Source of the DNA: Xanthomonas campestris pv. campestris str. ATCC 33913
Lineage (GTDB): Bacteria; Pseudomonadota; Gammaproteobacteria; Xanthomonadales; Xanthomonadaceae
Assembly: GCF_000007145.1 (NCBI RefSeq)
Contig: NC_003902.1
Coordinates: 2,396,497-2,428,496 of the forward strand
Reading direction: 5' to 3'
DNA length: 32,000 nucleotides
The notes under the pieces are model-generated. The model did not search any database. It was not told the origin of the DNA and saw only the letters and a program-made list of their open reading frames with translations. Within the stretch, counting starts at the first letter, position 1, and the number at the start of each line of letters is the position of its first letter. The translations under genes were made by a program, and so were the position numbers. This document shows, one piece after another, positions 1,878-17,141 of this stretch.

Positions 1878-3184
1878 GCCGCCGTCCATTCGCTGTGTTG
1901 GCGGTGTCCGCATTGGCCACTGCACTGGCCGCCTGCGGCCAGGCACCGGATGCCAAGCAGCACGGCGCTGCGCCGGAGTTGCCGTCACCGTACCGTGGCT
2001 TGATGCCCGACATGTTGATTGCCAAACCCGCCGCATGGAACGACCGCCGTCCCACCGTGCCGGCTGGCTACAGCGTGTCTGCAATTGCGACCGGCCTGGG
2101 CATTCCGCGCCAGACCCTGGTGCTGCCCAATGGCGACATCCTGGTGGCCGAAGGACGCGGCGGCGGTGCGCCCAATCTCAAGCCCAAGGACGTGATCGCC
2201 GGCAAGATCAAGGCCAAAGGCACCAGTTCGGTAAAGAGCGGCAACCGGCTGACGTTGTTGCGCGACGCCGACGGCGACGGCACCTACGAACTCAAGACCG
2301 TGTTTGCCGACAAGCTCAATGCGCCCTACGGGTTGGCGCTGATCGGCAACGCCTTGTACGTAGCCAACCAGGACGCGCTGGTGCGCTTCGATTACAGCGA
2401 AGGCCAGACCAAGGCCAGCGGCGCGCCAACGGTGGTGACCGAGCTGCCGTCTGCCATCAACCATCACTGGACCAAGGCGCTCACCGCCAGCGCCGACGGG
2501 CGCTATCTGTATGTCGCCATCGGCTCCAACAGCAACATCACCGAACGCGGCATGCCCGCCGAAGTCGATCGCGCACGCATCTGGCGGGTGGATGCCGCCA
2601 CCGGCGCACATAAGGCCTATGCCACCGGCCTGCGCAACCCCACCGCGCTGGCGATCCAGCCGGGGAGCGGCGCGCTGTGGGCCGTGGTCAACGAGCGCGA
2701 CGAGATCGGTCCGAATCTGGTGCCCGATTATCTGACCTCCGTGCGCGAAGGTGGCTTCTATGGCTGGCCTTACAGCTATTGGGGCAAGAATGTGGATACG
2801 CGCGTGATGCCGCAGGATCCGCAAAAAGTGGCCTCCGCCATTGCACCGGATTACGCATTGGGCTCGCATGTGGCTGCACTCGGCGTTGCGTTCTCGTCGG
2901 CGGCCATGGGCGAAAAATTCGCAGACGGTGTCTTCGTTGGCGAGCACGGCAGCTGGAACCGCGATCCGCCGGCGGGCTACAAGGTGGTGTTCGTGCCGTT
3001 CCGCGACGGCCGCCCGGCAGGCGACCCGATCGACTTCGTCTCCGGTTTCCACGGCGACGACGGGCTGACCCGTGGCCGCCCGGTCGGCGTCACCGTGGAT
3101 CCGCGTGGCGCGCTGATCGTGGCCGACGATCTGGCCAACACCATCTGGCGTGTGACTCCGGCTGCGAAGCCGGCCGCTCCCTGA
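1874..3184 (+). CDS. PQQ-dependent sugar dehydrogenase / sorbosone dehydrogenase family lipoprotein
   Basis: 436-aa ORF with a lipobox signal (LATALAACGQ). Beta-propeller-type repeats typical of soluble glucose/sorbosone dehydrogenases (GLGIPRQTLVLPNGDILVAE, YVANQDALVRF, LYVAIGSNSNI, ALWAVVNERDEIG, GFYGWPY, ALIVADDLANTIWRV). Confidence 0.85.
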   Translation: MSRRPFAVLAVSALATALAACGQAPDAKQHGAAPELPSPYRGLMPDMLIAKPAAWNDRRPTVPAGYSVSAIATGLGIPRQTLVLPNGDILVAEGRGGGAPNLKPKDVIAGKIKAKGTSSVKSGNRLTLLRDADGDGTYELKTVFADKLNAPYGLALIGNALYVANQDALVRFDYSEGQTKASGAPTVVTELPSAINHHWTKALTASADGRYLYVAIGSNSNITERGMPAEVDRARIWRVDAATGAHKAYATGLRNPTALAIQPGSGALWAVVNERDEIGPNLVPDYLTSVREGGFYGWPYSYWGKNVDTRVMPQDPQKVASAIAPDYALGSHVAALGVAFSSAAMGEKFADGVFVGEHGSWNRDPPAGYKVVFVPFRDGRPAGDPIDFVSGFHGDDGLTRGRPVGVTVDPRGALIVADDLANTIWRVTPAAKPAAP

Positions 3185-3208
3185 TCGGCATTCAACGGCG
3201 TTGAATCG

Positions 3209-3238
3209 GTGTGCCCGCTTCGAAGGAGGCGGGCACAC
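3209..3238 (+). terminator. Perfect 10-bp stem hairpin downstream of the dehydrogenase gene (terminator-like, no U-tract)
   Basis: gtgtgcccgc-ttcgaaggag-gcgggcacac lies 25 nt after the stop at 3184. A smaller hairpin attcaac-ggc-gttgaat (3190-3206) precedes it. The terminator function is inferred. Confidence 0.4.
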
Positions 3239-3399
3239 GGCCGATGCGCGTTGGCATGGTCGGTGTGTGGAGTAGGCGTGCTGTTCGAAAAACGCGCTGG
3301 CATGGCATGAGGTGTCGTGGCCAACGTTCGAACGAGGCACACGCACGATGATGGAACGGCGCTTTGTTACCATCGCGCCAGTCATAGAAAGGGCCATGC

Positions 3400-4437
3400 A
3401 TGCCATCGCTGACATTTCCCGAACCCGCGCTATTTGTTGCCAACCAGGGCGAGCCATCGCTGCGCTGGGGCATTCTGGGCCCCGGCGTCATCGCCACAGC
3501 TTTCGTCAAGGCCATGCGCGGCCATACCCGGCAACAGCCGTTCGCGGTGGCCTCGCGCTCGCGGGCACGTGCGGAGGCGTTTGCACAGGCCTGGTCCATC
3601 CCGCGAGCGTACGACAGTTACCAGGCACTGGTGGACGCCCCCCAGGTCGACATCGTCTACATCGCCACGCCGCACAGCGAACATCTGGCGCAGGGCTTGC
3701 TCGCATTGCGCGCTGGCAAGCATGTGCTGATCGAAAAACCCATCACCACCTGCGCGGCGGACGCACGTGTGCTGGTGCAGGAAGCCCGCGCACGTGGGTT
3801 GTTTCTGATGGAGGCGATGTGGAGCCGTTACCTGCCGCATGCGCTGGTGCTCAGGGCCCTGTCCGAGAGCGGCGCGCTTGGCAGCGTGCGCCACGTCTTT
3901 GCGGACCTGAGTCAGTTGGGGCCCAGCGATCCTGCGCATCGGCAGCGCAATCCGGCGCTGGGTGGCGGCGCCTTGCTCGACCTGGGTGTGTACACCGTGC
4001 AGCTGTCGTCGATGCTGCTCGGCACACCGACGGCCATCACCGCAACCGGCGCACTCACTGACACCGGCGTGGATGCATTTTCCACATTGGTGCTCTCGCA
4101 CCGCCAACACGCGCAGTCCACCTTGATCAGCTCGATCGTTGGCCGCAGTACGTCCACGGCTTACGTGAGCGGCACCGAGGCGCGCGTCGACCTGGGCGCC
4201 TCGTTCCACAATCCCACCACGCTGCAGCTGGCAGGCAACAGCGATGCCACTGCCGCAGCGCTGTGGCAGGACCCGACCGGCATCCGCGGCTATGACGGGC
4301 TCTGCTGGCAAGCGACCGCTGCCGCGCGTTTCATCGGCGAAGGTCGCACCGAATCGCCGCTGCATCCACTCGACGAAGTGGTGCAGATCATGACCACACT
4401 GGACACCGCACGCGCGCAGCTGGGCATGCGCAGTTAG
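3400..4437 (+). CDS. Gfo/Idh/MocA family NAD(P)-dependent oxidoreductase
   Basis: 345-aa ORF with an N-terminal Rossmann segment LRWGILGPGVIATAFVKAM, then IVYIATPHSEHLAQGLLALRAGKHVLIEKP (EKP motif). The exact start is uncertain; the conserved part begins about 20 codons in. Confidence 0.85.
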   Translation: MPSLTFPEPALFVANQGEPSLRWGILGPGVIATAFVKAMRGHTRQQPFAVASRSRARAEAFAQAWSIPRAYDSYQALVDAPQVDIVYIATPHSEHLAQGLLALRAGKHVLIEKPITTCAADARVLVQEARARGLFLMEAMWSRYLPHALVLRALSESGALGSVRHVFADLSQLGPSDPAHRQRNPALGGGALLDLGVYTVQLSSMLLGTPTAITATGALTDTGVDAFSTLVLSHRQHAQSTLISSIVGRSTSTAYVSGTEARVDLGASFHNPTTLQLAGNSDATAAALWQDPTGIRGYDGLCWQATAAARFIGEGRTESPLHPLDEVVQIMTTLDTARAQLGMRS

Positions 4438-4496
4438 GGGCGCAGCAGCAACGTGCGTGCACAGTGCCCATATCGCCGCCGGGTTGGGCGCACCAT

Positions 4497-4637
4497 TTAG
4501 AGCGGCTAACAAAACGTAGCGAGCAGTCGTCAGGTGGGTGCGGATGGCGCGGAGGAACCGGAATGTACGTGGGTACATGCCGATTCCGAGCACCGGCCGC
4601 GCCCGCCTGGCGGCTGCGCAGTCGTTTTGATAGCTGC
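4497..4637. repeat. 141-bp palindromic MITE/REP-like element, copy A
   Basis: Its reverse complement matches 13121-13261 with only about 4 mismatches. The element is itself an imperfect palindrome centred on atgtac-gtgg-gtacat. Confidence 0.85.
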
Positions 4638-4815
4638 TCTTAACACCGCACTGCCAATCCCTGCCGGTAACCGCTAAAGTGCCTGCCCCAAGGCAGGGCA
4701 GACGGTGGTGTCTGCCCTGGTGTCGAGCCCGATGGATTGCTCGACGTCACACGCAACCGCAACGTTGCACCAAGGCCAGCGCGCACGGATGTCCTGCGCT
4801 GCCTGATGTAGAAGG

Positions 4816-5511
4816 ATGTTGTTGTTGATGTGGTTCAGAGCTTGGTTGTGCGTTATTGGTGTGCTCACCGTTTCACCCGCCTTGGCGGCAGACCTGATCG
4901 GTCGCGCCACCGTCACCGATGGCGATACCCTCACCGTGGCGCAGCAGCGCATTCGTCTGTGGGGGATCGACGCGCCGGAGAGCGCGCAGCAATGCACCGC
5001 CCGCAATGGCCAGGCATGGCCGTGCGGCCGGCGCGCCGCAGCTGCACTGGACGCATACGTGCAGGACAAGACGGTACGCTGCCAGCCCAAGGATACAGAT
5101 CGCTACGGGCGCATCGTGGCCGAGTGCTTCGTGCAAGGCCAGTCGATCAACGCGTGGATGGTGCGTTCGGGCTGGGCCGTGGCGTATCGGCAATATGCCA
5201 CGGCATTTGTCGCTGACGAAGCCATTGCCCGCCAGCAGGCGAGCCAGCTGTGGAGCGGCAGCTTCCAGACCCCATCGGAGTACCGGCGCGCCAAACGCAG
5301 TGCGTCTGCCAAGCCTGCGGCAGGCACGTCCGCACCGAGCAATGCCCGCTGCACCATCAAGGGCAATGTCTCGGCGAAGGGCGCCAAGATCTTCCATTTG
5401 CCCGGACAGCGCGACTACGCAAAGACACGCATCGCCCCGGCCCATGGCGAGCGGATGTTCTGCAGCGTCAGGGAAGCACTGGATGCGGGCTGGCGCCCGG
5501 CGCAGCGTTGA
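4816..5511 (+). CDS. Secreted thermonuclease (SNase-like) with C-terminal sunset domain
   Basis: Signal-like N-terminus (WLCVIGVLTVSPALAADL). SNase motifs VTDGDTLTV, IRLWGIDAPE, DRYGRIVAEC, INAWMVRSGWAVAY. C-terminal CTIKGNVSAKGAKIFHLPGQRDYAKTRIAPAHGERMFCSVREALDAGWR matches the sunset-domain pattern. The ATG at 4828 is an alternative start. Confidence 0.8.
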   Translation: MLLLMWFRAWLCVIGVLTVSPALAADLIGRATVTDGDTLTVAQQRIRLWGIDAPESAQQCTARNGQAWPCGRRAAAALDAYVQDKTVRCQPKDTDRYGRIVAECFVQGQSINAWMVRSGWAVAYRQYATAFVADEAIARQQASQLWSGSFQTPSEYRRAKRSASAKPAAGTSAPSNARCTIKGNVSAKGAKIFHLPGQRDYAKTRIAPAHGERMFCSVREALDAGWRPAQR

Positions 5512-5618
5512 TCTGCAGCGCATTCGCCGATCAAAACCCGTAGGCGCGTATAGCGCTGCACGGGCCCGCCAATGCAGCGAACCCGTGTCTGCGTCCTCCC
5601 GCAGGCGCAGGTATGGTC

Positions 5619-7709
5619 TTACCAGATCACGACGCGGTCCTGTTCCGATCGGACCATCGCGTCGCCCGGCTTGCATCCAAACGCGGTGGCGAACTGCGGC
5701 ATATTCGACGGCGATGCATTCGTGCGGACCGCGTAGGGCGCATGACCATCCGAGCTGAGCAAGCTGAGCTGCTTCTCCTCGCGCATGGTGCCGCGCCACA
5801 GTCTTGCCCAGCCGAGGAAGAACCGCTGTTGCGGCGTAAATCCATCGATATCCGCACCACGCTTTGGATGCCGCTGTAGATTGGCCTGCAACGCATCGAA
5901 CGCAATATTGATGCCACCGAGGTCGGCAATGTTCTCTCCCAGCGTCAGTTCGCCGTTGACGTGCACGTCCGGCTTGTTCGGCAGCGGGGTGTAGGCGTTG
6001 AACTGGGTGACCAGCTTGCTGGCGCGCGCAGTGAAGGCGGCCCGATCGGCCGGTGCCCACCAGTTGACGTTGGTGCCAACCGCATTGAACTTGCTGCCTT
6101 GATCGTCGAAGCCGTGGGTCGCCTCGTGTCCCATCACGGCACCAATGGCGCCGTAATTCAGCGCGTCGTCCGCGGTCACATCAAAGAAGGGAGGACGCAA
6201 GACCGCCGCCGGGAAATTGATGCTGTTGTCCAGCGAAAAATAGAACGCGTTGACGGTTTGCGGCGTGGTGAACCACGCGGTCCGGTCCGCTGGCTTGCCG
6301 ACCTTGGCAAGCTCATAGCGATAGTTGAACGCCGCGGCTGTTTCCACATTGCGTAAATAGGCGTCGCGCTCGAAGTGCAGGCCCGACCAGCTGCGCCAGT
6401 GATCCGGGTAGCCAACCTTGACGACGAATCCTGCCCATTTCTTCAATGCAGCGGACTTGGTCTCCGCTGTCATCCAGTCTGCCTGCTGGATCCGCAGCTT
6501 GAGTGCCTGGCGGATGTTTTCGATCAGCTCTGTTGCGCGCTGCTTGGCTTCGGGGGTGAACATCTTTGCCACATACAGCTGGCCAAGACCCTCGCCGATG
6601 GCTTCATTGGTCGCAAACAGCACGCGCTTCCAGCGCGGCCGCTGCGCCTGCTGCCCGTCCATGGTCTTGTAGCGGAACGCGAAGCGGTTATCGACAAACG
6701 GCTTGCTCAGGGCGAACGCCGCATCGTCAATCGCACGAAAGCGTAAATAGGCCTGCCATTGCGAGACGGGCAAGGTCTTCAACAAGTGATCGAAGCCTGC
6801 AAAGAAGCGCGGCTGCGAGAGGGAGAAACGCTGATCCGTGCTCAACCCCTGCGCGGCCAGATACGCCTTCCACGAGAAATGCGGCGTCACTGCGTCGGCC
6901 TGTGCAACGCTGACCAGATGGTATTGGGTCTTTGGGTCGCGCGCTTCGACCGGACTCAGCGATGCCGCTGCGAGCGCCGTTTCAACCTGCAAGACCTGCT
7001 TGGCCTGCACTGTTGCAGCCTCGGGCGTCGCGCCGGCCAGGACGAAGGACTGGGTGATGTAATCCAGATACGCTTTGCGAATGTCGGCATAGCGCGAGTC
7101 GGTGTAATACGCCTTCGATGGCAGCGTCATGCCGTTCTCTTCGGCATAAGCGATCACCTTCGACGCATCCTGGAAATCCGGGTAGGCGCCGAACTTGAAG
7201 ACCAGCCCGGCACCTTGGGTATTGCGTGCAGCAATGAAATTGGCAACGTCCTGCGGCGTTTTCAGCGCTTCAATCTGCGCGAGCCGCGGGCGAATGGGTG
7301 CATCGCCCAGGCGCTGGATCGTGGCTTCGTCCATACCGGACGCGTAGAACGTGCCCACCAGTTGCTCAACGGAACCCTCCACAGGTTTCGATCGGCCCAG
7401 CGCCTCCACGATCTCGCGCTGGGCAGCATCGCTTTCGTCCTGCAGCGTTGGGTAGCTGCCGACTTCCGTTTCGTCGGGAGGAATGGTTGTCTTGGCAAGC
7501 CACTTGGAATTGACGAAGCCGTTGAGGTCCTGGCAGGCGCTGATGGTGGGCTGCAGTTCCTGCGGGTCAAACGCTGCGCGCTGTGGAGCGTGTTGCGGTG
7601 CGGCTGCCGGTGTTGCGGTTGGGCCTGGCGCTGTGGCCGGATCGCGCTTGCAGGCGCTCAGCGCCATCACGGTGGCAACGGCGAGCAATGTGCTCCTGGA
7701 AAGAGTCAT
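5619..7709 (-). CDS. M13 family zinc metallopeptidase (PepO / endothelin-converting-enzyme-like) lipoprotein
   Basis: Track ORF 5619..7946 trimmed to the internal ATG at 7709, which gives the lipoprotein signal MTLSRSTLLAVATVMALSACK. Contains the HExxH motif (VMGHEATHGFDD) and the M13 motif GENIADLGG. Confidence 0.9.
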   Translation of the reverse strand: MTLSRSTLLAVATVMALSACKRDPATAPGPTATPAAAPQHAPQRAAFDPQELQPTISACQDLNGFVNSKWLAKTTIPPDETEVGSYPTLQDESDAAQREIVEALGRSKPVEGSVEQLVGTFYASGMDEATIQRLGDAPIRPRLAQIEALKTPQDVANFIAARNTQGAGLVFKFGAYPDFQDASKVIAYAEENGMTLPSKAYYTDSRYADIRKAYLDYITQSFVLAGATPEAATVQAKQVLQVETALAAASLSPVEARDPKTQYHLVSVAQADAVTPHFSWKAYLAAQGLSTDQRFSLSQPRFFAGFDHLLKTLPVSQWQAYLRFRAIDDAAFALSKPFVDNRFAFRYKTMDGQQAQRPRWKRVLFATNEAIGEGLGQLYVAKMFTPEAKQRATELIENIRQALKLRIQQADWMTAETKSAALKKWAGFVVKVGYPDHWRSWSGLHFERDAYLRNVETAAAFNYRYELAKVGKPADRTAWFTTPQTVNAFYFSLDNSINFPAAVLRPPFFDVTADDALNYGAIGAVMGHEATHGFDDQGSKFNAVGTNVNWWAPADRAAFTARASKLVTQFNAYTPLPNKPDVHVNGELTLGENIADLGGINIAFDALQANLQRHPKRGADIDGFTPQQRFFLGWARLWRGTMREEKQLSLLSSDGHAPYAVRTNASPSNMPQFATAFGCKPGDAMVRSEQDRVVIW

Positions 7710-13120: not shown

Positions 13121-13261
13121 GCAGCTATCAAAACGACTGCGCAGCCGCCAGGCGGGCGCGGCCGGTGCTCGGAATCGGCATGTACCCACGTACACTCCGG
13201 TTCCTCCGCGCCGTCCGCACCCGCCTGACGACTGCTCGCTACGTTTTGTTAGCCGCTCTAA
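13121..13261. repeat. 141-bp palindromic MITE/REP-like element, copy B (inverted relative to copy A)
   Basis: gcagctatcaaaacgactgcgcagccgccaggcgggcgcggccggtgctcggaatcggcatgtacccacgtacactccgg... is the reverse complement of 4497-4637 with about 4 mismatches. It starts 2 nt after the HxlR stop. Confidence 0.85.
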
Positions 13262-13363: not shown

Positions 13364-13618
13364 TTATTGCGACGTATCGCGCCGCACACGCGTGCGATAC
13401 GCCGCCACATTGTCGCCATCGATCTGCTTGCGCTGTGTTCCGGTGATGGTGTCGATCCTGGTGTCCGAACACGTCACCGGTTCGGCATCAACCAGCGTCT
13501 CGCGCTCGAAGGCATGTGATTGCCCGGTGTTGCGGTAGTACTGATACAAGACCCAGTACAGCGTGCTTGCACCGATCGGCCCGGCCAGCAACACCAGCAG
13601 CCCTACATTGTCGCTCAT
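13364..13618 (-). CDS. 84-aa single-pass membrane protein, third gene of the SPFH operon
   Basis: The ATG at 13618 overlaps the upstream stop (ATGA across 13615-13618). MSDNVGLLVLLAGPIGASTLYWVLYQYY is one TM helix, followed by a polar ~55-aa tail. Confidence 0.6.
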   Translation of the reverse strand: MSDNVGLLVLLAGPIGASTLYWVLYQYYRNTGQSHAFERETLVDAEPVTCSDTRIDTITGTQRKQIDGDNVAAYRTRVRRDTSQ

Positions 13619-14952
13619 GCGATCACCGCCAAAAACCACAGTGCGGCCGCTTCGATCACGGTACCGGTGACCAGCGCGGCAAGCAGCAATTTCCATTGCT
13701 GCACCGGCACGCTGCCCATGGTTTCACCGGTGCGGCCATTCACTGCGATGTAGTGCAGCAGACCGCCGTTGCGGCCAGGCTGATGATAGGAATACAGCCA
13801 GACCGGCAGATACATCGACACCCAGCGTGTACCGTGCACTTCGAGCTGTTCCCGCTCCCAGCGCACACCGCGGTCGTAGCGGCTGACCGAGCGTTCCACC
13901 TGTGCGCGCGCGATCGACAGCAACTGGTCTTCCAGCCGTGGCCGTAGCTGCTCGATATTGCTGTCGCGCCGCTCCGAACTGAAGCCTGACAGATACGACG
14001 CGTTCCACTGCACCGCATTCTTGGTGTCGAACGGCAGGATGGTGTTGATGATGTTGTTGGTCGTGACCCGGCTATCGAGATTGCCACGCTCGGAAGACGA
14101 TTCCAGTGGCAGATCGTCCACGGTGAATTGCACCTGCCGTTTCACCGCATAGATGTCGGCGTCGTAATAGGTCTTCTTGTTCTTCTCGGTGCCCTGGGTG
14201 TACGTGCGCGTGGTGATTTCGCCCACGCCGGTCACGCTGGCGCTCACGTTGCCATCGACGATCATGTAAGGCAGATAGACGCCCACCACGTTCTCCGGGG
14301 TGAACTGCTGCTTGAAAGCCTTCAGCGCAAACAGGCGGCGCTTGCCGACGAACTGGCGGATACGCGCCACCGCGTCCTGCTTGTCGATATGAAAGGGCAG
14401 CACGGCATCGGGCACCGCGCCATTGGCCACCTGTTCGTTGACGCCGAACACGTGTCGGCACCAGTGGCATCGCGCGGTCATCGCGCTATCGGTATTGATG
14501 GTGACTTCCGCGCCGCAGCCGCTGCATTTGAAGCTCATCAGGCTATTGGCATCGGCCTGGATGTTGCGCGCACCCGAGGCGATGACCGTCCCGCGCAACT
14601 CGGCCAGGCCGGCGCCGAATCCATACGCTTCCTCGACCCGCGCGCCATCCCAGGTGTGGCGGCAGTACTGGCACACCAGCAGGTCAGTGCCGAGCTTGGG
14701 GCGGATATCGGTGGCGCCACATTTGGGACACCGGTTGAGGCCATCTTTTAATTCGGCCGCGGCGGTGTCGATGGCGAGCGGGTCGGGCATCTGCAGTTCG
14801 GCGCGGATCGGCGCGGGCAGGGTGGCCGGGTCGATGGCCATCTGTCCCGGTAACGGCGGCACGCCCTGCGGCGACCCTGGGCCGTGCGCTGCAGGCGGTA
14901 GCGGCGGTGGCTGCAACGGTGGCAGCGGCGGCGGAATGCTGGAGCTGGACAT
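13615..14952 (-). CDS. Pro-rich, double zinc-ribbon protein with C-terminal TM anchor (YdjG-like partner of SPFH protein)
   Basis: 445-aa ORF with an ATG start. N-terminus SSSSIPPPLPPLQPPPLPP. Ribbon 1 is CPKCGATD..(14)..CQYCRHTW and ribbon 2 is CSGCGAEV..(13)..CHWCRHVF. The C-terminus WKLLLAALVTGTVIEAAALWFLAVIA is a TM helix. Confidence 0.8.
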   Translation of the reverse strand: MSSSSIPPPLPPLQPPPLPPAAHGPGSPQGVPPLPGQMAIDPATLPAPIRAELQMPDPLAIDTAAAELKDGLNRCPKCGATDIRPKLGTDLLVCQYCRHTWDGARVEEAYGFGAGLAELRGTVIASGARNIQADANSLMSFKCSGCGAEVTINTDSAMTARCHWCRHVFGVNEQVANGAVPDAVLPFHIDKQDAVARIRQFVGKRRLFALKAFKQQFTPENVVGVYLPYMIVDGNVSASVTGVGEITTRTYTQGTEKNKKTYYDADIYAVKRQVQFTVDDLPLESSSERGNLDSRVTTNNIINTILPFDTKNAVQWNASYLSGFSSERRDSNIEQLRPRLEDQLLSIARAQVERSVSRYDRGVRWEREQLEVHGTRWVSMYLPVWLYSYHQPGRNGGLLHYIAVNGRTGETMGSVPVQQWKLLLAALVTGTVIEAAALWFLAVIA

Positions 14953-14967
14953 GGGCGGGCCTGCGAC

Positions 14968-16110
14968 TTACAAGCCCAGCGCCTTGGCCTTGGCGGCGTC
15001 GTAATCACTCTGTGTAATCAGCCCGAGGTCCAGCATTTCCTTGGCCTTCTTCAACGTCGCCACCGGGTCTTGCGCTGCGGGTGCGGCGGGCTGCTGCAGA
15101 TTGCCCAAACCGCCCAGCATGCCGGTCGCCATGCCAACGCCAACCAGTCCGGCCGCGCCGCCGTGTTCGCCGGCCGATTGCAGGCCCTGCGCGGCACTCG
15201 CCTGCAGATTGGCATTGCCGCGCGCGCCGCTCAACGCATCGGCACGCTGCACGGTCTTGAGCAGTTCGCGCGTGTTGGCGTCGTATTCGATCGACACAAT
15301 CGCCGTCTTGACGATGGCCAGGCCGCGATCGGACTGCCATTGATACGCCTCTTCCACCGCAGCGGAGAGGCTCTTGGCAAAGCCGAGTGCATCCTGCTGC
15401 AGCCGGGTGATGCGATTGCCCTTGGCGGTGTCGTTGGTGTACAGGCTGAAGGCCGGCGCAAGCGCGCTCACCACTTCGTTGAACAACTGGCCGGCGGCCG
15501 CATTGTCCAGGTCGGTGAAGTCGAACACCTGTCCGGGCTGCAAATAGCTGGCCGGCACGAAGTTCTTCACGAACAGGATCGGGTCGACGATCTTCAGCGT
15601 GTATGAGCCGCGCGTCACCGCGCCGACCTGCGTGCCCAGGAAGCCGTCGTCCCAGTAGATTTCCGATTGCGTGCCGAAGCGGTTGTCGGGCAGCTCCTTC
15701 AGCGCCACAAAGAAGGCGGCCTGCTGCGTCCCAGGCTGGCCACCGAACTTGAAGCGCTCCCAGCTCTGCCGGATCAACGGCGACACCAGGCCGTCGCCGG
15801 CAAACAGCGATTGCGCGTTGACATCGTCCGAGCGCCACTCGTAACCGCCGGCTTCGGCGACAAACGCGGTGACGGCGCCGTCTTGCATCAGCAGCAGCCC
15901 ATAGCCCTCCGGGACCACGATCCTGGAGCCATTGCTGATGACGTTGGAAGATGCGCCGGTATTGGCGCCGCGTCCGGCATTACTGCCGCGCGGCACCGCG
16001 GCAAACACGGCAGCCGTTGCAGGCAGGCCCGCCGGCACGGTGTAGAAATCTTTCCACTGGTCGGCAAGAACGCCACCCACTGCACCTGCAACCGCCTGCA
16101 CAAGACCCAT
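14968..16110 (-). CDS. SPFH/Band-7 (YdjI / 'virion core protein' type) protein with C-terminal SHOCT-like domain
   Basis: 380-aa ORF with an ATG at 16110 and AGGGAG 5 nt upstream. N-terminus MGLVQAVAGAVGGVLADQWKDFYTVP is typical of the Band_7_1 family. Gly/Ala-rich linker, then ATLKKAKEMLDLGLITQSDYDAAKAKALGL (SHOCT pattern). No TM helix. Confidence 0.85.
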   Translation of the reverse strand: MGLVQAVAGAVGGVLADQWKDFYTVPAGLPATAAVFAAVPRGSNAGRGANTGASSNVISNGSRIVVPEGYGLLLMQDGAVTAFVAEAGGYEWRSDDVNAQSLFAGDGLVSPLIRQSWERFKFGGQPGTQQAAFFVALKELPDNRFGTQSEIYWDDGFLGTQVGAVTRGSYTLKIVDPILFVKNFVPASYLQPGQVFDFTDLDNAAAGQLFNEVVSALAPAFSLYTNDTAKGNRITRLQQDALGFAKSLSAAVEEAYQWQSDRGLAIVKTAIVSIEYDANTRELLKTVQRADALSGARGNANLQASAAQGLQSAGEHGGAAGLVGVGMATGMLGGLGNLQQPAAPAAQDPVATLKKAKEMLDLGLITQSDYDAAKAKALGL

Positions 16111-16238
16111 GACAACTCCCTGTAATGCGCGGCAGGCACGGCGCCCCGCGTGATCGCGGCACTATATCAGCAGCGGGCCGGGCGCCCGGCCGATCAGGCG
16201 GCGATGCAGCGGTCGTGACATTGCGCGAGCGCCAAACG

Positions 16239-16260
16239 AAAAAACCCCGCCGTAGCGGGG
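16239..16260 (-). terminator. Rho-independent terminator of the small secreted-protein gene
   Basis: The minus strand reads ccccgc-tacg-gcgggg followed by TTTTTT (plus-strand A6 at 16239-16244). It lies 49 nt after the stop at 16309 and insulates the SPFH operon from upstream transcription. Confidence 0.75.
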
Positions 16261-16715: not shown

Positions 16716-17141
16716 TCAGCGTGAGAGCCCCACCGTGGCCCAGGCCAACACTGCATAGCGCGTGGTCTTGGCCACAGTGACCAGCATCAGGAACACACCC
16801 AGGCGTTCGCGCATGACACCGGCGGCAAGCGTCAGCGGGTCGCCGATGATCGGCATCCAGCTCAATAGCAGCGACCACTTGCCGTACCTGCCGTACCAGG
16901 CTTGCGCACGCAGCAAGGCAGACGGCTTGATGGGAAACCAGCGCCGGCCCTGAAAGCGCGTGACCTCGCGCCCGATCCACCAGTTGATCAGCGAGCCGAG
17001 CACGTTGCCCGCGCTTGCAGCGGCGACCAGGCCCCACACCGAACCGCCATCCAGCAGCAACGCCACCAACGCCGCCTCGGACTGCGCCGGCAGCAAGGTG
17101 GCTGCAATCAGCGCCAGTGCAAAGAGCGAGAGATAGGTCAT
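16716..17141 (-). CDS. YqaA-family (DedA/SNARE-associated-like) membrane protein
   Basis: 141-aa ORF: MTYLSLFALALIAATLLPAQSEAALVALLL...GNVLGSLINWWIGR...YGKWSLLLSWMPIIGDPLTLAAGVMR matches the YqaA pattern. Confidence 0.8.
   Translation of the reverse strand: MTYLSLFALALIAATLLPAQSEAALVALLLDGGSVWGLVAAASAGNVLGSLINWWIGREVTRFQGRRWFPIKPSALLRAQAWYGRYGKWSLLLSWMPIIGDPLTLAAGVMRERLGVFLMLVTVAKTTRYAVLAWATVGLSR

Follow-up and report, generated by a model that had tools for sequence, protein, structure and literature searches.

Three tightly packed minus-strand genes, g1, g2 and g3, occupy positions 13364-16110 of a 32,000-nucleotide (nt) stretch of the genome of Xanthomonas campestris pv. campestris str. 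ATCC 33913 (Xcc; contig NC_003902.1, positions 2,396,497 to 2,428,496); this whole stretch is called the window below. Proteins 100% identical to those encoded here come from X. campestris records, several of which are pv. campestris. They probably encode a two-component, membrane-associated SPFH module of the type represented by YdjG and YdjI (SamG and SamI) of Bacillus subtilis, without a linked pspA or YdjH; we put the probability of this reading at about 0.6. The SPFH protein is encoded by g1, and the YdjG-like, double zinc-ribbon membrane protein by g2. The third gene is the detached tail of the g2-type protein; therefore, the unit corresponds to an SPFH plus YdjG-like pair in which a gene fission has taken place. 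What is new here is a YdjG/YdjI-type module that lacks PspA and YdjH, has a SHOCT tail and has a split anchor; a module of this kind has been partly characterized already.

SPFH proteins are found throughout life, and their functions in bacteria are poorly defined. To our knowledge, the only studied member of the soluble Band_7_1 branch is B. subtilis YdjI/SamI, which has been interpreted mainly via its link to PspA. The strongest points of the present analysis are a pair conserved across phyla and an anchor domain whose fold lacks a solved structural counterpart.

Products of g1, g2 and g3

The profile of g1 is that of an SPFH protein at the edge of the Pfam cut-offs. It scored 22.9 bits (E = 7e-5) against Band_7_1 (PF13421), just under the 24-bit cut-off, and 22.3 bits (E = 1e-4) against SHOCT, below the cut-off of 27. 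Orthologues at approximately 89% identity bear PF13421 and PF09851 in precomputed annotation; the names given to them are either "SPFH domain-containing protein" or "virion core protein (lumpy skin disease virus)". For comparison with B. subtilis, the operon was taken from a metagenome contig, in which it was located by the published ydjG primer. BLASTP aligned g1 with YdjI over the SPFH domain (E = 1e-7), and the g1 family profile matched YdjI at 99.9% in hhalign (E = 2.6e-32); YdjI itself scores 146.9 bits on PF13421. No transmembrane (TM) segment was detected in g1: the highest Kyte-Doolittle hydropathy over 19 residues was 1.32, with no window above 1.5. The protein thus shares with YdjI-type SPFH proteins the Band_7_1 match, the lack of an intrinsic anchor, and a low-complexity linker followed by a small C-terminal adaptor. 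These comparisons show g1 to be a homologue of YdjI/SamI, a soluble SPFH protein of the Band_7_1 family in which a flexible linker rich in Gly and Ala leads to a SHOCT tail.

The relationship between g2 and YdjG extends from end to end. BLASTP gave an E value of 5e-23, with residues 74-433 of g2 aligned against residues 6-328 of YdjG, and the g2 family profile matched YdjG at 99.7% in hhalign (E = 5.8e-26, 313 columns). The eight cysteines of the four CxxC motifs (C75, C78, C94, C97, C143, C146, C162, and C165) do not vary among 47 diverse sequences, YdjG included. The architecture published for YdjG, in which two zinc ribbons, an uncharacterized domain and a TM segment were described (PMC11237479), is that of g2. 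In other words, the two proteins have the same two ribbons, homologous central α/β domain and C-terminal TM helix over their full length, and g2, as in the YdjG/SamG family, has a Band_7_1 gene as its neighbor. Taken together, g2 is a full-length YdjG/SamG homologue, with the ribbons and the large β-rich domain in the cytoplasm and one TM helix in the inner membrane. Database searches said less: in Pfam, NCBIfam, PHROGs and PADLOC, the matches of g2 did not go beyond unspecific zinc-ribbon noise and g3 had no usable match, and a sequence search of the PDB found nothing for g1 or g2. Both the name of g2 in RefSeq, "TFIIB-type zinc ribbon-containing protein", and the unannotated 84-amino-acid (aa) open reading frame (ORF) of g3 could be replaced by better annotations.

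The AlphaFold2 (AF2) model of g2 (predicted local distance difference test (pLDDT) of 87; predicted template-modelling score (pTM) of 0.79) consists of an N-terminus that is rich in Pro and disordered, the two ribbons, a pair of long helices, the β-rich part and a C-terminal TM helix. The β strands are unusually long (residues 223-253, 260-284, and 363-391). Residues 1-32 have a pLDDT below 50, and approximately the first 57 residues are predicted to be disordered. This Pro-rich region is conserved enough to give tblastn matches from residue 1 in several genera. The start of g2 differs among RefSeq records, which give 445, 408 or 391 aa; the 445-aa start is backed by these matches and by a conserved g1-g2 gap of 14-24 nt in most loci. 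Foldseek found no significant match in the PDB for the model of g2 or for that of an unsplit homologue. Matches to pore-form toxins (E of at least 0.065; TM-score of approximately 0.05-0.1) were dismissed as artefacts, because such non-significant matches arise from the very long β-hairpins.

It should be mentioned that the only significant structural neighbors of the g2 core domain were two giant-virus proteins in BFVD, named "DnaJ-like subfamily C member 3", from Yasminevirus (A0A5K0UBJ7) and Edafosvirus (A0A3G4ZSZ8), with E of approximately 3e-9 and TM-scores of 0.33-0.41 over 245-283 columns. In addition, four distant g2 homologues (P0399, P0403, P0404, and P0405) carry a precomputed match to PF27618.1. 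It may be that part of the g2-type protein already falls within a recent Pfam family.

Many relatives of g2 are 450-530 aa in length and contain two TM helices and a C-terminal extension, and it is this part that g3 resembles. All 69 phmmer matches of g3 fell in the C-terminal region of longer g2 homologues, and the concatenated g2 and g3 sequences are colinear with 12 unsplit relatives. The g2/g3 junction (AVIA/MSDN) corresponds to a short acidic loop between the first and second TM helices (TM1 and TM2), and the segment YYRNtgqSHaFERET of g3 aligns with the near-invariant family motif YRN..RH..E..T. A hidden Markov model (HMM) of g3 orthologues matched 116 of the unsplit relatives, 119 in number, whereas reversed controls gave no match. 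The split form, with a g3-like ORF downstream, is also present in two more distant lineages, in which g2 is 49% and 40% identical to that of Xcc and the g3-like ORFs match g3 with BLASTP E values of 1e-14 and 1e-8. Because of the phmmer matches, the colinear alignment, the HMM and these distant split forms, g3 is a product of gene fission and not a new component: it corresponds to TM2 and the conserved tail of the ancestral YdjG-like protein, now encoded by a separate gene. This helix and tail of the g2 family are missing from YdjG. YdjH was considered as a counterpart of g3 and rejected, since the two show no similarity (E = 6.2) and YdjH contains a TPM domain; Pfam gave no match for g3.

Unsplit SPFH-SHOCT plus YdjG-like pairs are found in uncultured genomes of Gram-positive type (for example, P0407, P0402, and P0462; P0477 from a metagenome-assembled genome (MAG) of Coriobacteriia). 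They resemble the Xcc proteins in the SPFH-linker-SHOCT order, the ribbons, the core domain and the YRN..H..E.ET tail. They differ in that the anchor is a single chain of 470-510 aa with two TM helices, which in Xcc is cut into g2 and g3 at the loop between the helices. The model of another unsplit relative, P0444 (pLDDT 89.6; pTM 0.86), adds TM2 and a confident 20-residue strand (residues 437-456), and the strand in its g3-equivalent tail has a pLDDT above 93. This model suggests that the g3 tail completes the β sheet of g2. The natural split at the TM1-TM2 loop offers a ready-made experiment on how the anchor is constructed.

The domains that the original prediction assigned to these proteins are borne out. 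It had described g1 as a TM-less SPFH/Band-7 protein of the YdjI type with a SHOCT-like C-terminus, in agreement with the profiles, hhalign and hydropathy, and g2 as a protein with a polyproline N-terminus, two ribbons and a C-terminal TM helix, as is now seen in the four CxxC motifs and TM1. It had also linked g2 to YdjG, and the BLASTP and hhalign results make g2 a true homologue and not just an analogue. As for g3, the single TM pass (residues 5-27) stands, and the status of independent third component does not, given the colinearity with single-chain relatives.

Conservation of the pair

All three genes are present, in identical order, in 81 of 81 Xanthomonadales-type loci, which come from Xanthomonas, Stenotrophomonas, Pseudoxanthomonas, Lysobacter, Luteimonas, Thermomonas, Dokdonella, Panacagrimonas, Ahniellaceae, and Rhodanobacteraceae. 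Across these loci the protein identity is 79-89% for g1, 74-86% for g2 and 47-83% for g3. Because of this conservation at the protein level and the constant order, g1, g2 and g3 are real genes and not chance ORFs. The four nucleotides (ATGA) shared by the g2 stop and the g3 start are retained in 73 of the 81 loci, and through this overlap g3 is predicted to be translationally coupled to g2.

The genome scan returned only such close loci; therefore, distant synteny was taken from plasmid records and exact-protein look-ups. The SPFH gene was upstream of the YdjG-like gene in 13 of 13 other contexts inspected and directly adjacent to it in 11. It lies immediately upstream in Enterococcus, Comamonas, Vibrio, Tsukamurella, and Paracoccus, and six metagenomic or MAG contexts show the same SPFH-first adjacency, with a SHOCT tail on their SPFH proteins as well. 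A 56-aa ORF is placed between the two genes in locus L101, and a TPM gene follows the pair in Enterococcus only. The partners co-vary: g2 proteins at 40-49% identity are accompanied by g1 proteins at 57-65% with the same SHOCT architecture, and in more distant pairs the SPFH protein has other C-terminal adaptors, for example, a zinc ribbon or a helix-turn-helix. The SPFH-SHOCT plus YdjG-like subfamily at these identities is also present in contigs with Gram-positive-type neighbors and in the Coriobacteriia MAG. Judged from these records, the pair is conserved as gene neighbors across phyla. Within the collection of literature searched, no paper was found on the SPFH plus YdjG-like pair outside Bacillus.

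An exhaustive search placed 3651 representatives at 50% clustering in the g2 family (E of 1e-3 or less), 222 of them with E of 1e-30 or less. Because the pair is conserved without a nearby pspA across Xanthomonadales and several other phyla, and because of this number of representatives, the data suggest that the SPFH plus YdjG-like pair, and not PspA, is the functional core. Xanthomonas and Stenotrophomonas are genetically tractable Gram-negative models in which this core function could be addressed.

The triad is constant in the Xanthomonadales-type loci and the pair is present in all 13 other contexts; most relatives are two-gene units with no third gene. The label "proteobacterial variant" of the original prediction does not fit, considering the Gram-positive-type contigs and the Coriobacteriia MAG, together with the distant pairs in Enterococcus, Tsukamurella, Paracoccus, Comamonas, and Vibrio.

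Two of the distant contexts deserve comment in their own right. In locus L096, a Band_7_1 gene is followed by a gene for a 501-aa protein without a Pfam match (2474-3979) and then by one for a 733-aa YdjG-like protein (3994-6195); this may be a duplicated or expanded anchor. The Enterococcus gallinarum record labelled as plasmid pK205-4a-A (L084; NZ_CP116511.1, 484 kb) contains dnaX, recR, tmk and rplJ/L/A around the SPFH-YdjG-TPM genes, and looks like chromosomal sequence.

A phage origin of the module was considered and rejected. The gene is carried by one of 2.9 million viral contigs in IMG/VR. A set of 50,697 phage records gave eight or nine matches, most of which are fragments from faeces that are labelled "Bacteriophage sp." and lack annotation. 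The SPFH and YdjG-like genes are adjacent in six phage-labelled records; such carriers include MT835641, OR846590, OR846934 and others, which are faecal "Bacteriophage sp." contigs and Enterococcus and Listeria phage records, all of them unannotated. The proteins encoded in MT835641 are 67% identical to g1 and 51% identical to g2, and the genes might belong to a phage or to host DNA. A horizontally acquired island was likewise rejected: the GC content of the operon (0.61-0.67) matches that of its flanks.

Comparison with known systems, proposed mechanism and alternatives

In B. subtilis, the YdjG and YdjI genes are in one operon, as are g2 and g1 here, and YdjI resembles g1 in its Band_7_1 SPFH domain, the lack of a TM segment and the low-complexity linker. 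The complete pspA-ydjGHI system is absent from the Xcc locus, which has neither a linked pspA nor a TPM-domain YdjH and in which the SPFH gene comes first. A tblastn search with B. subtilis PspA gave nothing below E = 2 in the 32-kb window, and nothing at E of 1e-3 or less within 4-8 kb on each side of the pair in other loci. The original prediction is therefore right about the absence of pspA from the window, where the Pfam families of the neighbors are also unrelated, and about the gene order being the reverse of that in B. subtilis. Although the B. subtilis homologues belong to a Psp-type response, no PspA, PspB, PspC or PspF was found in the window or in related loci. The module is assigned to no characterized pathway and to no PADLOC system, in line with the original prediction of a variant with no assigned function.

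Classical SPFH-NfeD operons (stomatin/NfeD, QmcA-YbbJ, YqiK-YqiJ, and FloT-YuaF) and HflK/C likewise place an SPFH scaffold next to a dedicated membrane-anchored partner. The likeness of the g1-g2 layout to these systems is a functional analogy only: g1 lacks a TM anchor and is a member of Band_7_1 instead of Band_7, and its partner is an unrelated zinc-ribbon, β-rich protein. Pfam and NCBIfam gave no NfeD match for g2 or g3.

Experiments in B. subtilis indicate how such a module might work. YdjG and YdjH are needed for membrane localization of the soluble YdjI, and YdjI is needed for the formation of PspA foci (PMC8581546). SamGH has been proposed to be a membrane stress sensor complex, in which SamI is required to regulate signal perception by SamGH (bioRxiv 10.64898/2026.02.06.704340). 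By analogy, g2 and g3 would reassemble into a TM hairpin, and the tail of g3 would contribute a long β strand to the g2 domain. The resulting anchor would recruit g1 to the inner face of the inner membrane, as SamG and SamH do SamI. The SPFH domain might then oligomerize at the membrane to form a scaffold that senses or buffers membrane perturbation. Expression would probably start from an extended -10 promoter and include a conserved 5' leader hairpin. PspA seems, on the same analogy, not to be an obligatory partner; its coupling in Bacillus might be a lineage-specific addition to an older SPFH plus YdjG-like core.

Several points weigh against this reading. Functional transfer rests on an identity of only approximately 21-22% to the B. 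subtilis proteins, and the C-terminal adaptor differs, being SHOCT in g1 and a zinc ribbon in YdjI. In two-hybrid assays, the protein in direct contact with YdjI and PspA was YdjH and not YdjG (PMC8581546). YdjH is absent here; therefore, the route of anchoring may differ. The PspA search covered the window and the flanks of the loci, and a PspA protein may be encoded elsewhere in the Xanthomonas genome. The proposed packing of g3 into the g2 sheet is derived from secondary structure and confidence values.

A wider reading goes beyond the two-component module and is tentative. It takes the pair as an ancient, phylum-spanning membrane-surveillance system that works without PspA, from which SamGHI was derived. 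Its anchor fold would consist of four β strands of 20-30 residues, one of them supplied in trans by g3 in Xanthomonadales, and would cap or join the SPFH oligomer as a new class of SPFH partner, in a place like that of NfeD in the classical operons. We consider it unlikely that the module works together with a PspA/IM30-family protein whose gene lies elsewhere in the Xanthomonas chromosome, and that it brings this protein to the membrane as in B. subtilis. Such a role would agree with the requirement for YdjI in PspA focus formation, and links between SPFH and ESCRT-III proteins recur in comparative genomics (PMC11237479; PMC10936438). The searches around the pair described above speak against it, as does the finding that PspA is not required for the developmental phenotype that depends on SamI in B. 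subtilis (bioRxiv 10.64898/2026.02.06.704340). We consider it improbable that the unit is a three-component, PspA-independent module triggered by envelope damage or phage, with g3 as an independent third subunit in analogy to ydjGHI. The three genes do always occur together in Xanthomonadales, in a layout like that of ydjGHI, and homologues of two of the three proteins are encoded in that operon. Nevertheless, the homology and colinearity of g3 with the C-terminus of single-chain relatives make it part of the g2 protein; g3 is unlike YdjH, and the relatives are mostly two-gene pairs.

Equally improbable seems a role of g2 as a membrane-tethered nucleic-acid-binding or signalling protein acting through TFIIB-type ribbons, with g1 as its regulator and not as a recruited scaffold. 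The RefSeq name of g2 points in this direction, the first ribbon of YdjG passes the Pfam family Zn_Ribbon_TF (44 bits), and loss of SamI leads to constitutive SamGH stress signalling and a global transcriptional change (bioRxiv 10.64898/2026.02.06.704340). However, contacts between proteins are a common role of zinc ribbons, Pfam and NCBIfam gave neither a DNA-binding nor an output domain for g2, and the evidence for signalling is limited to B. subtilis, where YdjH is present as well. We give very little credence to an anti-phage or abortive-infection system in which the SPFH protein restrains a membrane-active, β-rich g2 effector. In its favor are the best PDB matches of both models (g2 and the unsplit homologue), all non-significant, which are hemolysin, MACPF and gasdermin pore forms, and the membership of the B. 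subtilis operon in the regulon of sigma-W, which is activated by membrane stress including phage infection. The former carry no weight at the E values and TM-scores given above. PADLOC had no match for g1 or g3 and only zinc-ribbon-level matches for g2 (E of at least 0.03), and the gene is carried by only one of 2.9 million viral contigs. An identity of 74-89% in every locus examined across the order does not resemble the patchiness of defence islands, the GC content agrees with that of the host, and the neighbors are housekeeping or transport genes that vary between genera. The "Zn-ribbon sensor" and "phage-triggered" parts of the original prediction are not supported: the protein is cytoplasmic except for its TM helix, and the locus is core-like, host-like in composition and outside any defence island.

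Arrangement of the locus and its flanking elements

The coordinates of the genes and elements are collected in Table 1. The g1 gene ends with TAA and is separated from g2 by a gap of 15 nt. The gap, the g2/g3 overlap, the ribosome-binding site (RBS) and the upstream terminator all agree with the three packed genes described by the original prediction.

Table 1. Features of the SPFH plus YdjG-like unit in the window
Feature	Position (nt)	Strand	Basis
g1, soluble SPFH (Band_7_1) protein, 380 aa	14968..16110	-	Pfam, orthologue annotation, BLASTP and hhalign against YdjI
g1 SPFH core, residues ~55-295	15226-15948	-	
g1 Gly/Ala/Met-rich linker, residues ~296-345	within g1	-	
g1 SHOCT, residues ~351-378	14977-15060	-	
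g2, YdjG/SamG-like membrane-anchored double zinc-ribbon protein, 445 aa	13615..14952	-	BLASTP, hhalign, Cys conservation, AF2
g2 disordered Pro-rich N-terminus, residues 1-57	within g2	-	
g2 zinc ribbon 1, C75-C97	14662-14730	-	
g2 zinc ribbon 2, C143-C165	14458-14526	-	
g2 α/β domain with very long strands, residues 178-415	13708-14421	-	
g2 TM1, residues 419-444	13621-13698	-	AF2 model
g3, detached C-terminal module of YdjG-like protein, 84 aa	13364..13618	-	phmmer, alignment, HMM, model
g3 TM2, residues 5-27	13538-13606	-	
g3 conserved cytoplasmic tail, residues 28-84, motif YRNtgqSHaFERET	within g3	-	
RBS of g1, AGGGAG	16116..16121	-	Five nt before the g1 ATG; sequence reading; GGAG-type motif kept in aligned upstream regions
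Conserved GC-rich stem-loop, presumed 5' leader	16128..16150	-	RNAalifold and covariation
Putative extended -10 element TGaTATAGT (TATAGT 16166-16161)	16161..16169	-	Conservation only
Intrinsic terminator of the upstream gene, upstream edge of the unit	16239..16260	-	CCCCGC-tacg-GCGGGG + TTTTTT; same stem-loop in terminator scan
Palindromic element, downstream edge of the unit	13123..13254	.	Small RNA (sRNA) sX9 13180-13254 (+) and weak inverted copy 13123-13195 (-)

A TATAGT-like hexamer is found approximately 45-55 nt before the g1 ATG in nearly all of the 58 distinct aligned upstream regions. In this alignment T7 and T9 do not vary, and the conservation of A10 and T12 is 90% or more. There is no -35 hexamer, and for this reason a strict sigma-70 scan gave no promoter. 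An extended -10 promoter would drive the operon. Between this element and g1, RNAalifold predicted a stem of 5 bp with compensatory changes in 4 of the 5 pairs. In an eight-pair version, 87.7% of the cells were paired, compared with 29-50% for slid partners; the covariation score was 0.225 against at most 0.089, and none of 500 shuffles reached the observed value. The Xcc sequence folds at the same place, with an unremarkable energy of its own (z = 0.86), and the stem-loop has no match in Rfam. Both the stem-loop and the TATAGT are conserved across Xanthomonadales genera, and might represent an RNA element or a DNA operator.

The neighbors of the operon in the window are unrelated to it: a VTT/DedA-like protein, a TonB-dependent receptor, an HxlR regulator, and a major facilitator superfamily (MFS) transporter. 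Different genes flank the copy in Dokdonella. The VTT/DedA-family membrane protein gene (16716-17141, minus strand; PF09335, E = 3.5e-11) shares the strand of the operon and is located two genes upstream of it; it is absent beside the Dokdonella copy. DedA proteins are linked to membrane homeostasis.

On the downstream side, the palindromic element noted by the original prediction was found approximately 105 nt past the g3 stop. It contains a full-length match to the Xanthomonas sRNA sX9 (RF02228) of 95 bits, compared with a gathering score of 44 (E = 2.7e-17), and the reverse copy scores 28 bits. The terminator scan gave no canonical intrinsic terminator between the g3 stop and this element, which may itself act as a bidirectional terminator or stabilizer between g3 and the convergent HxlR gene.

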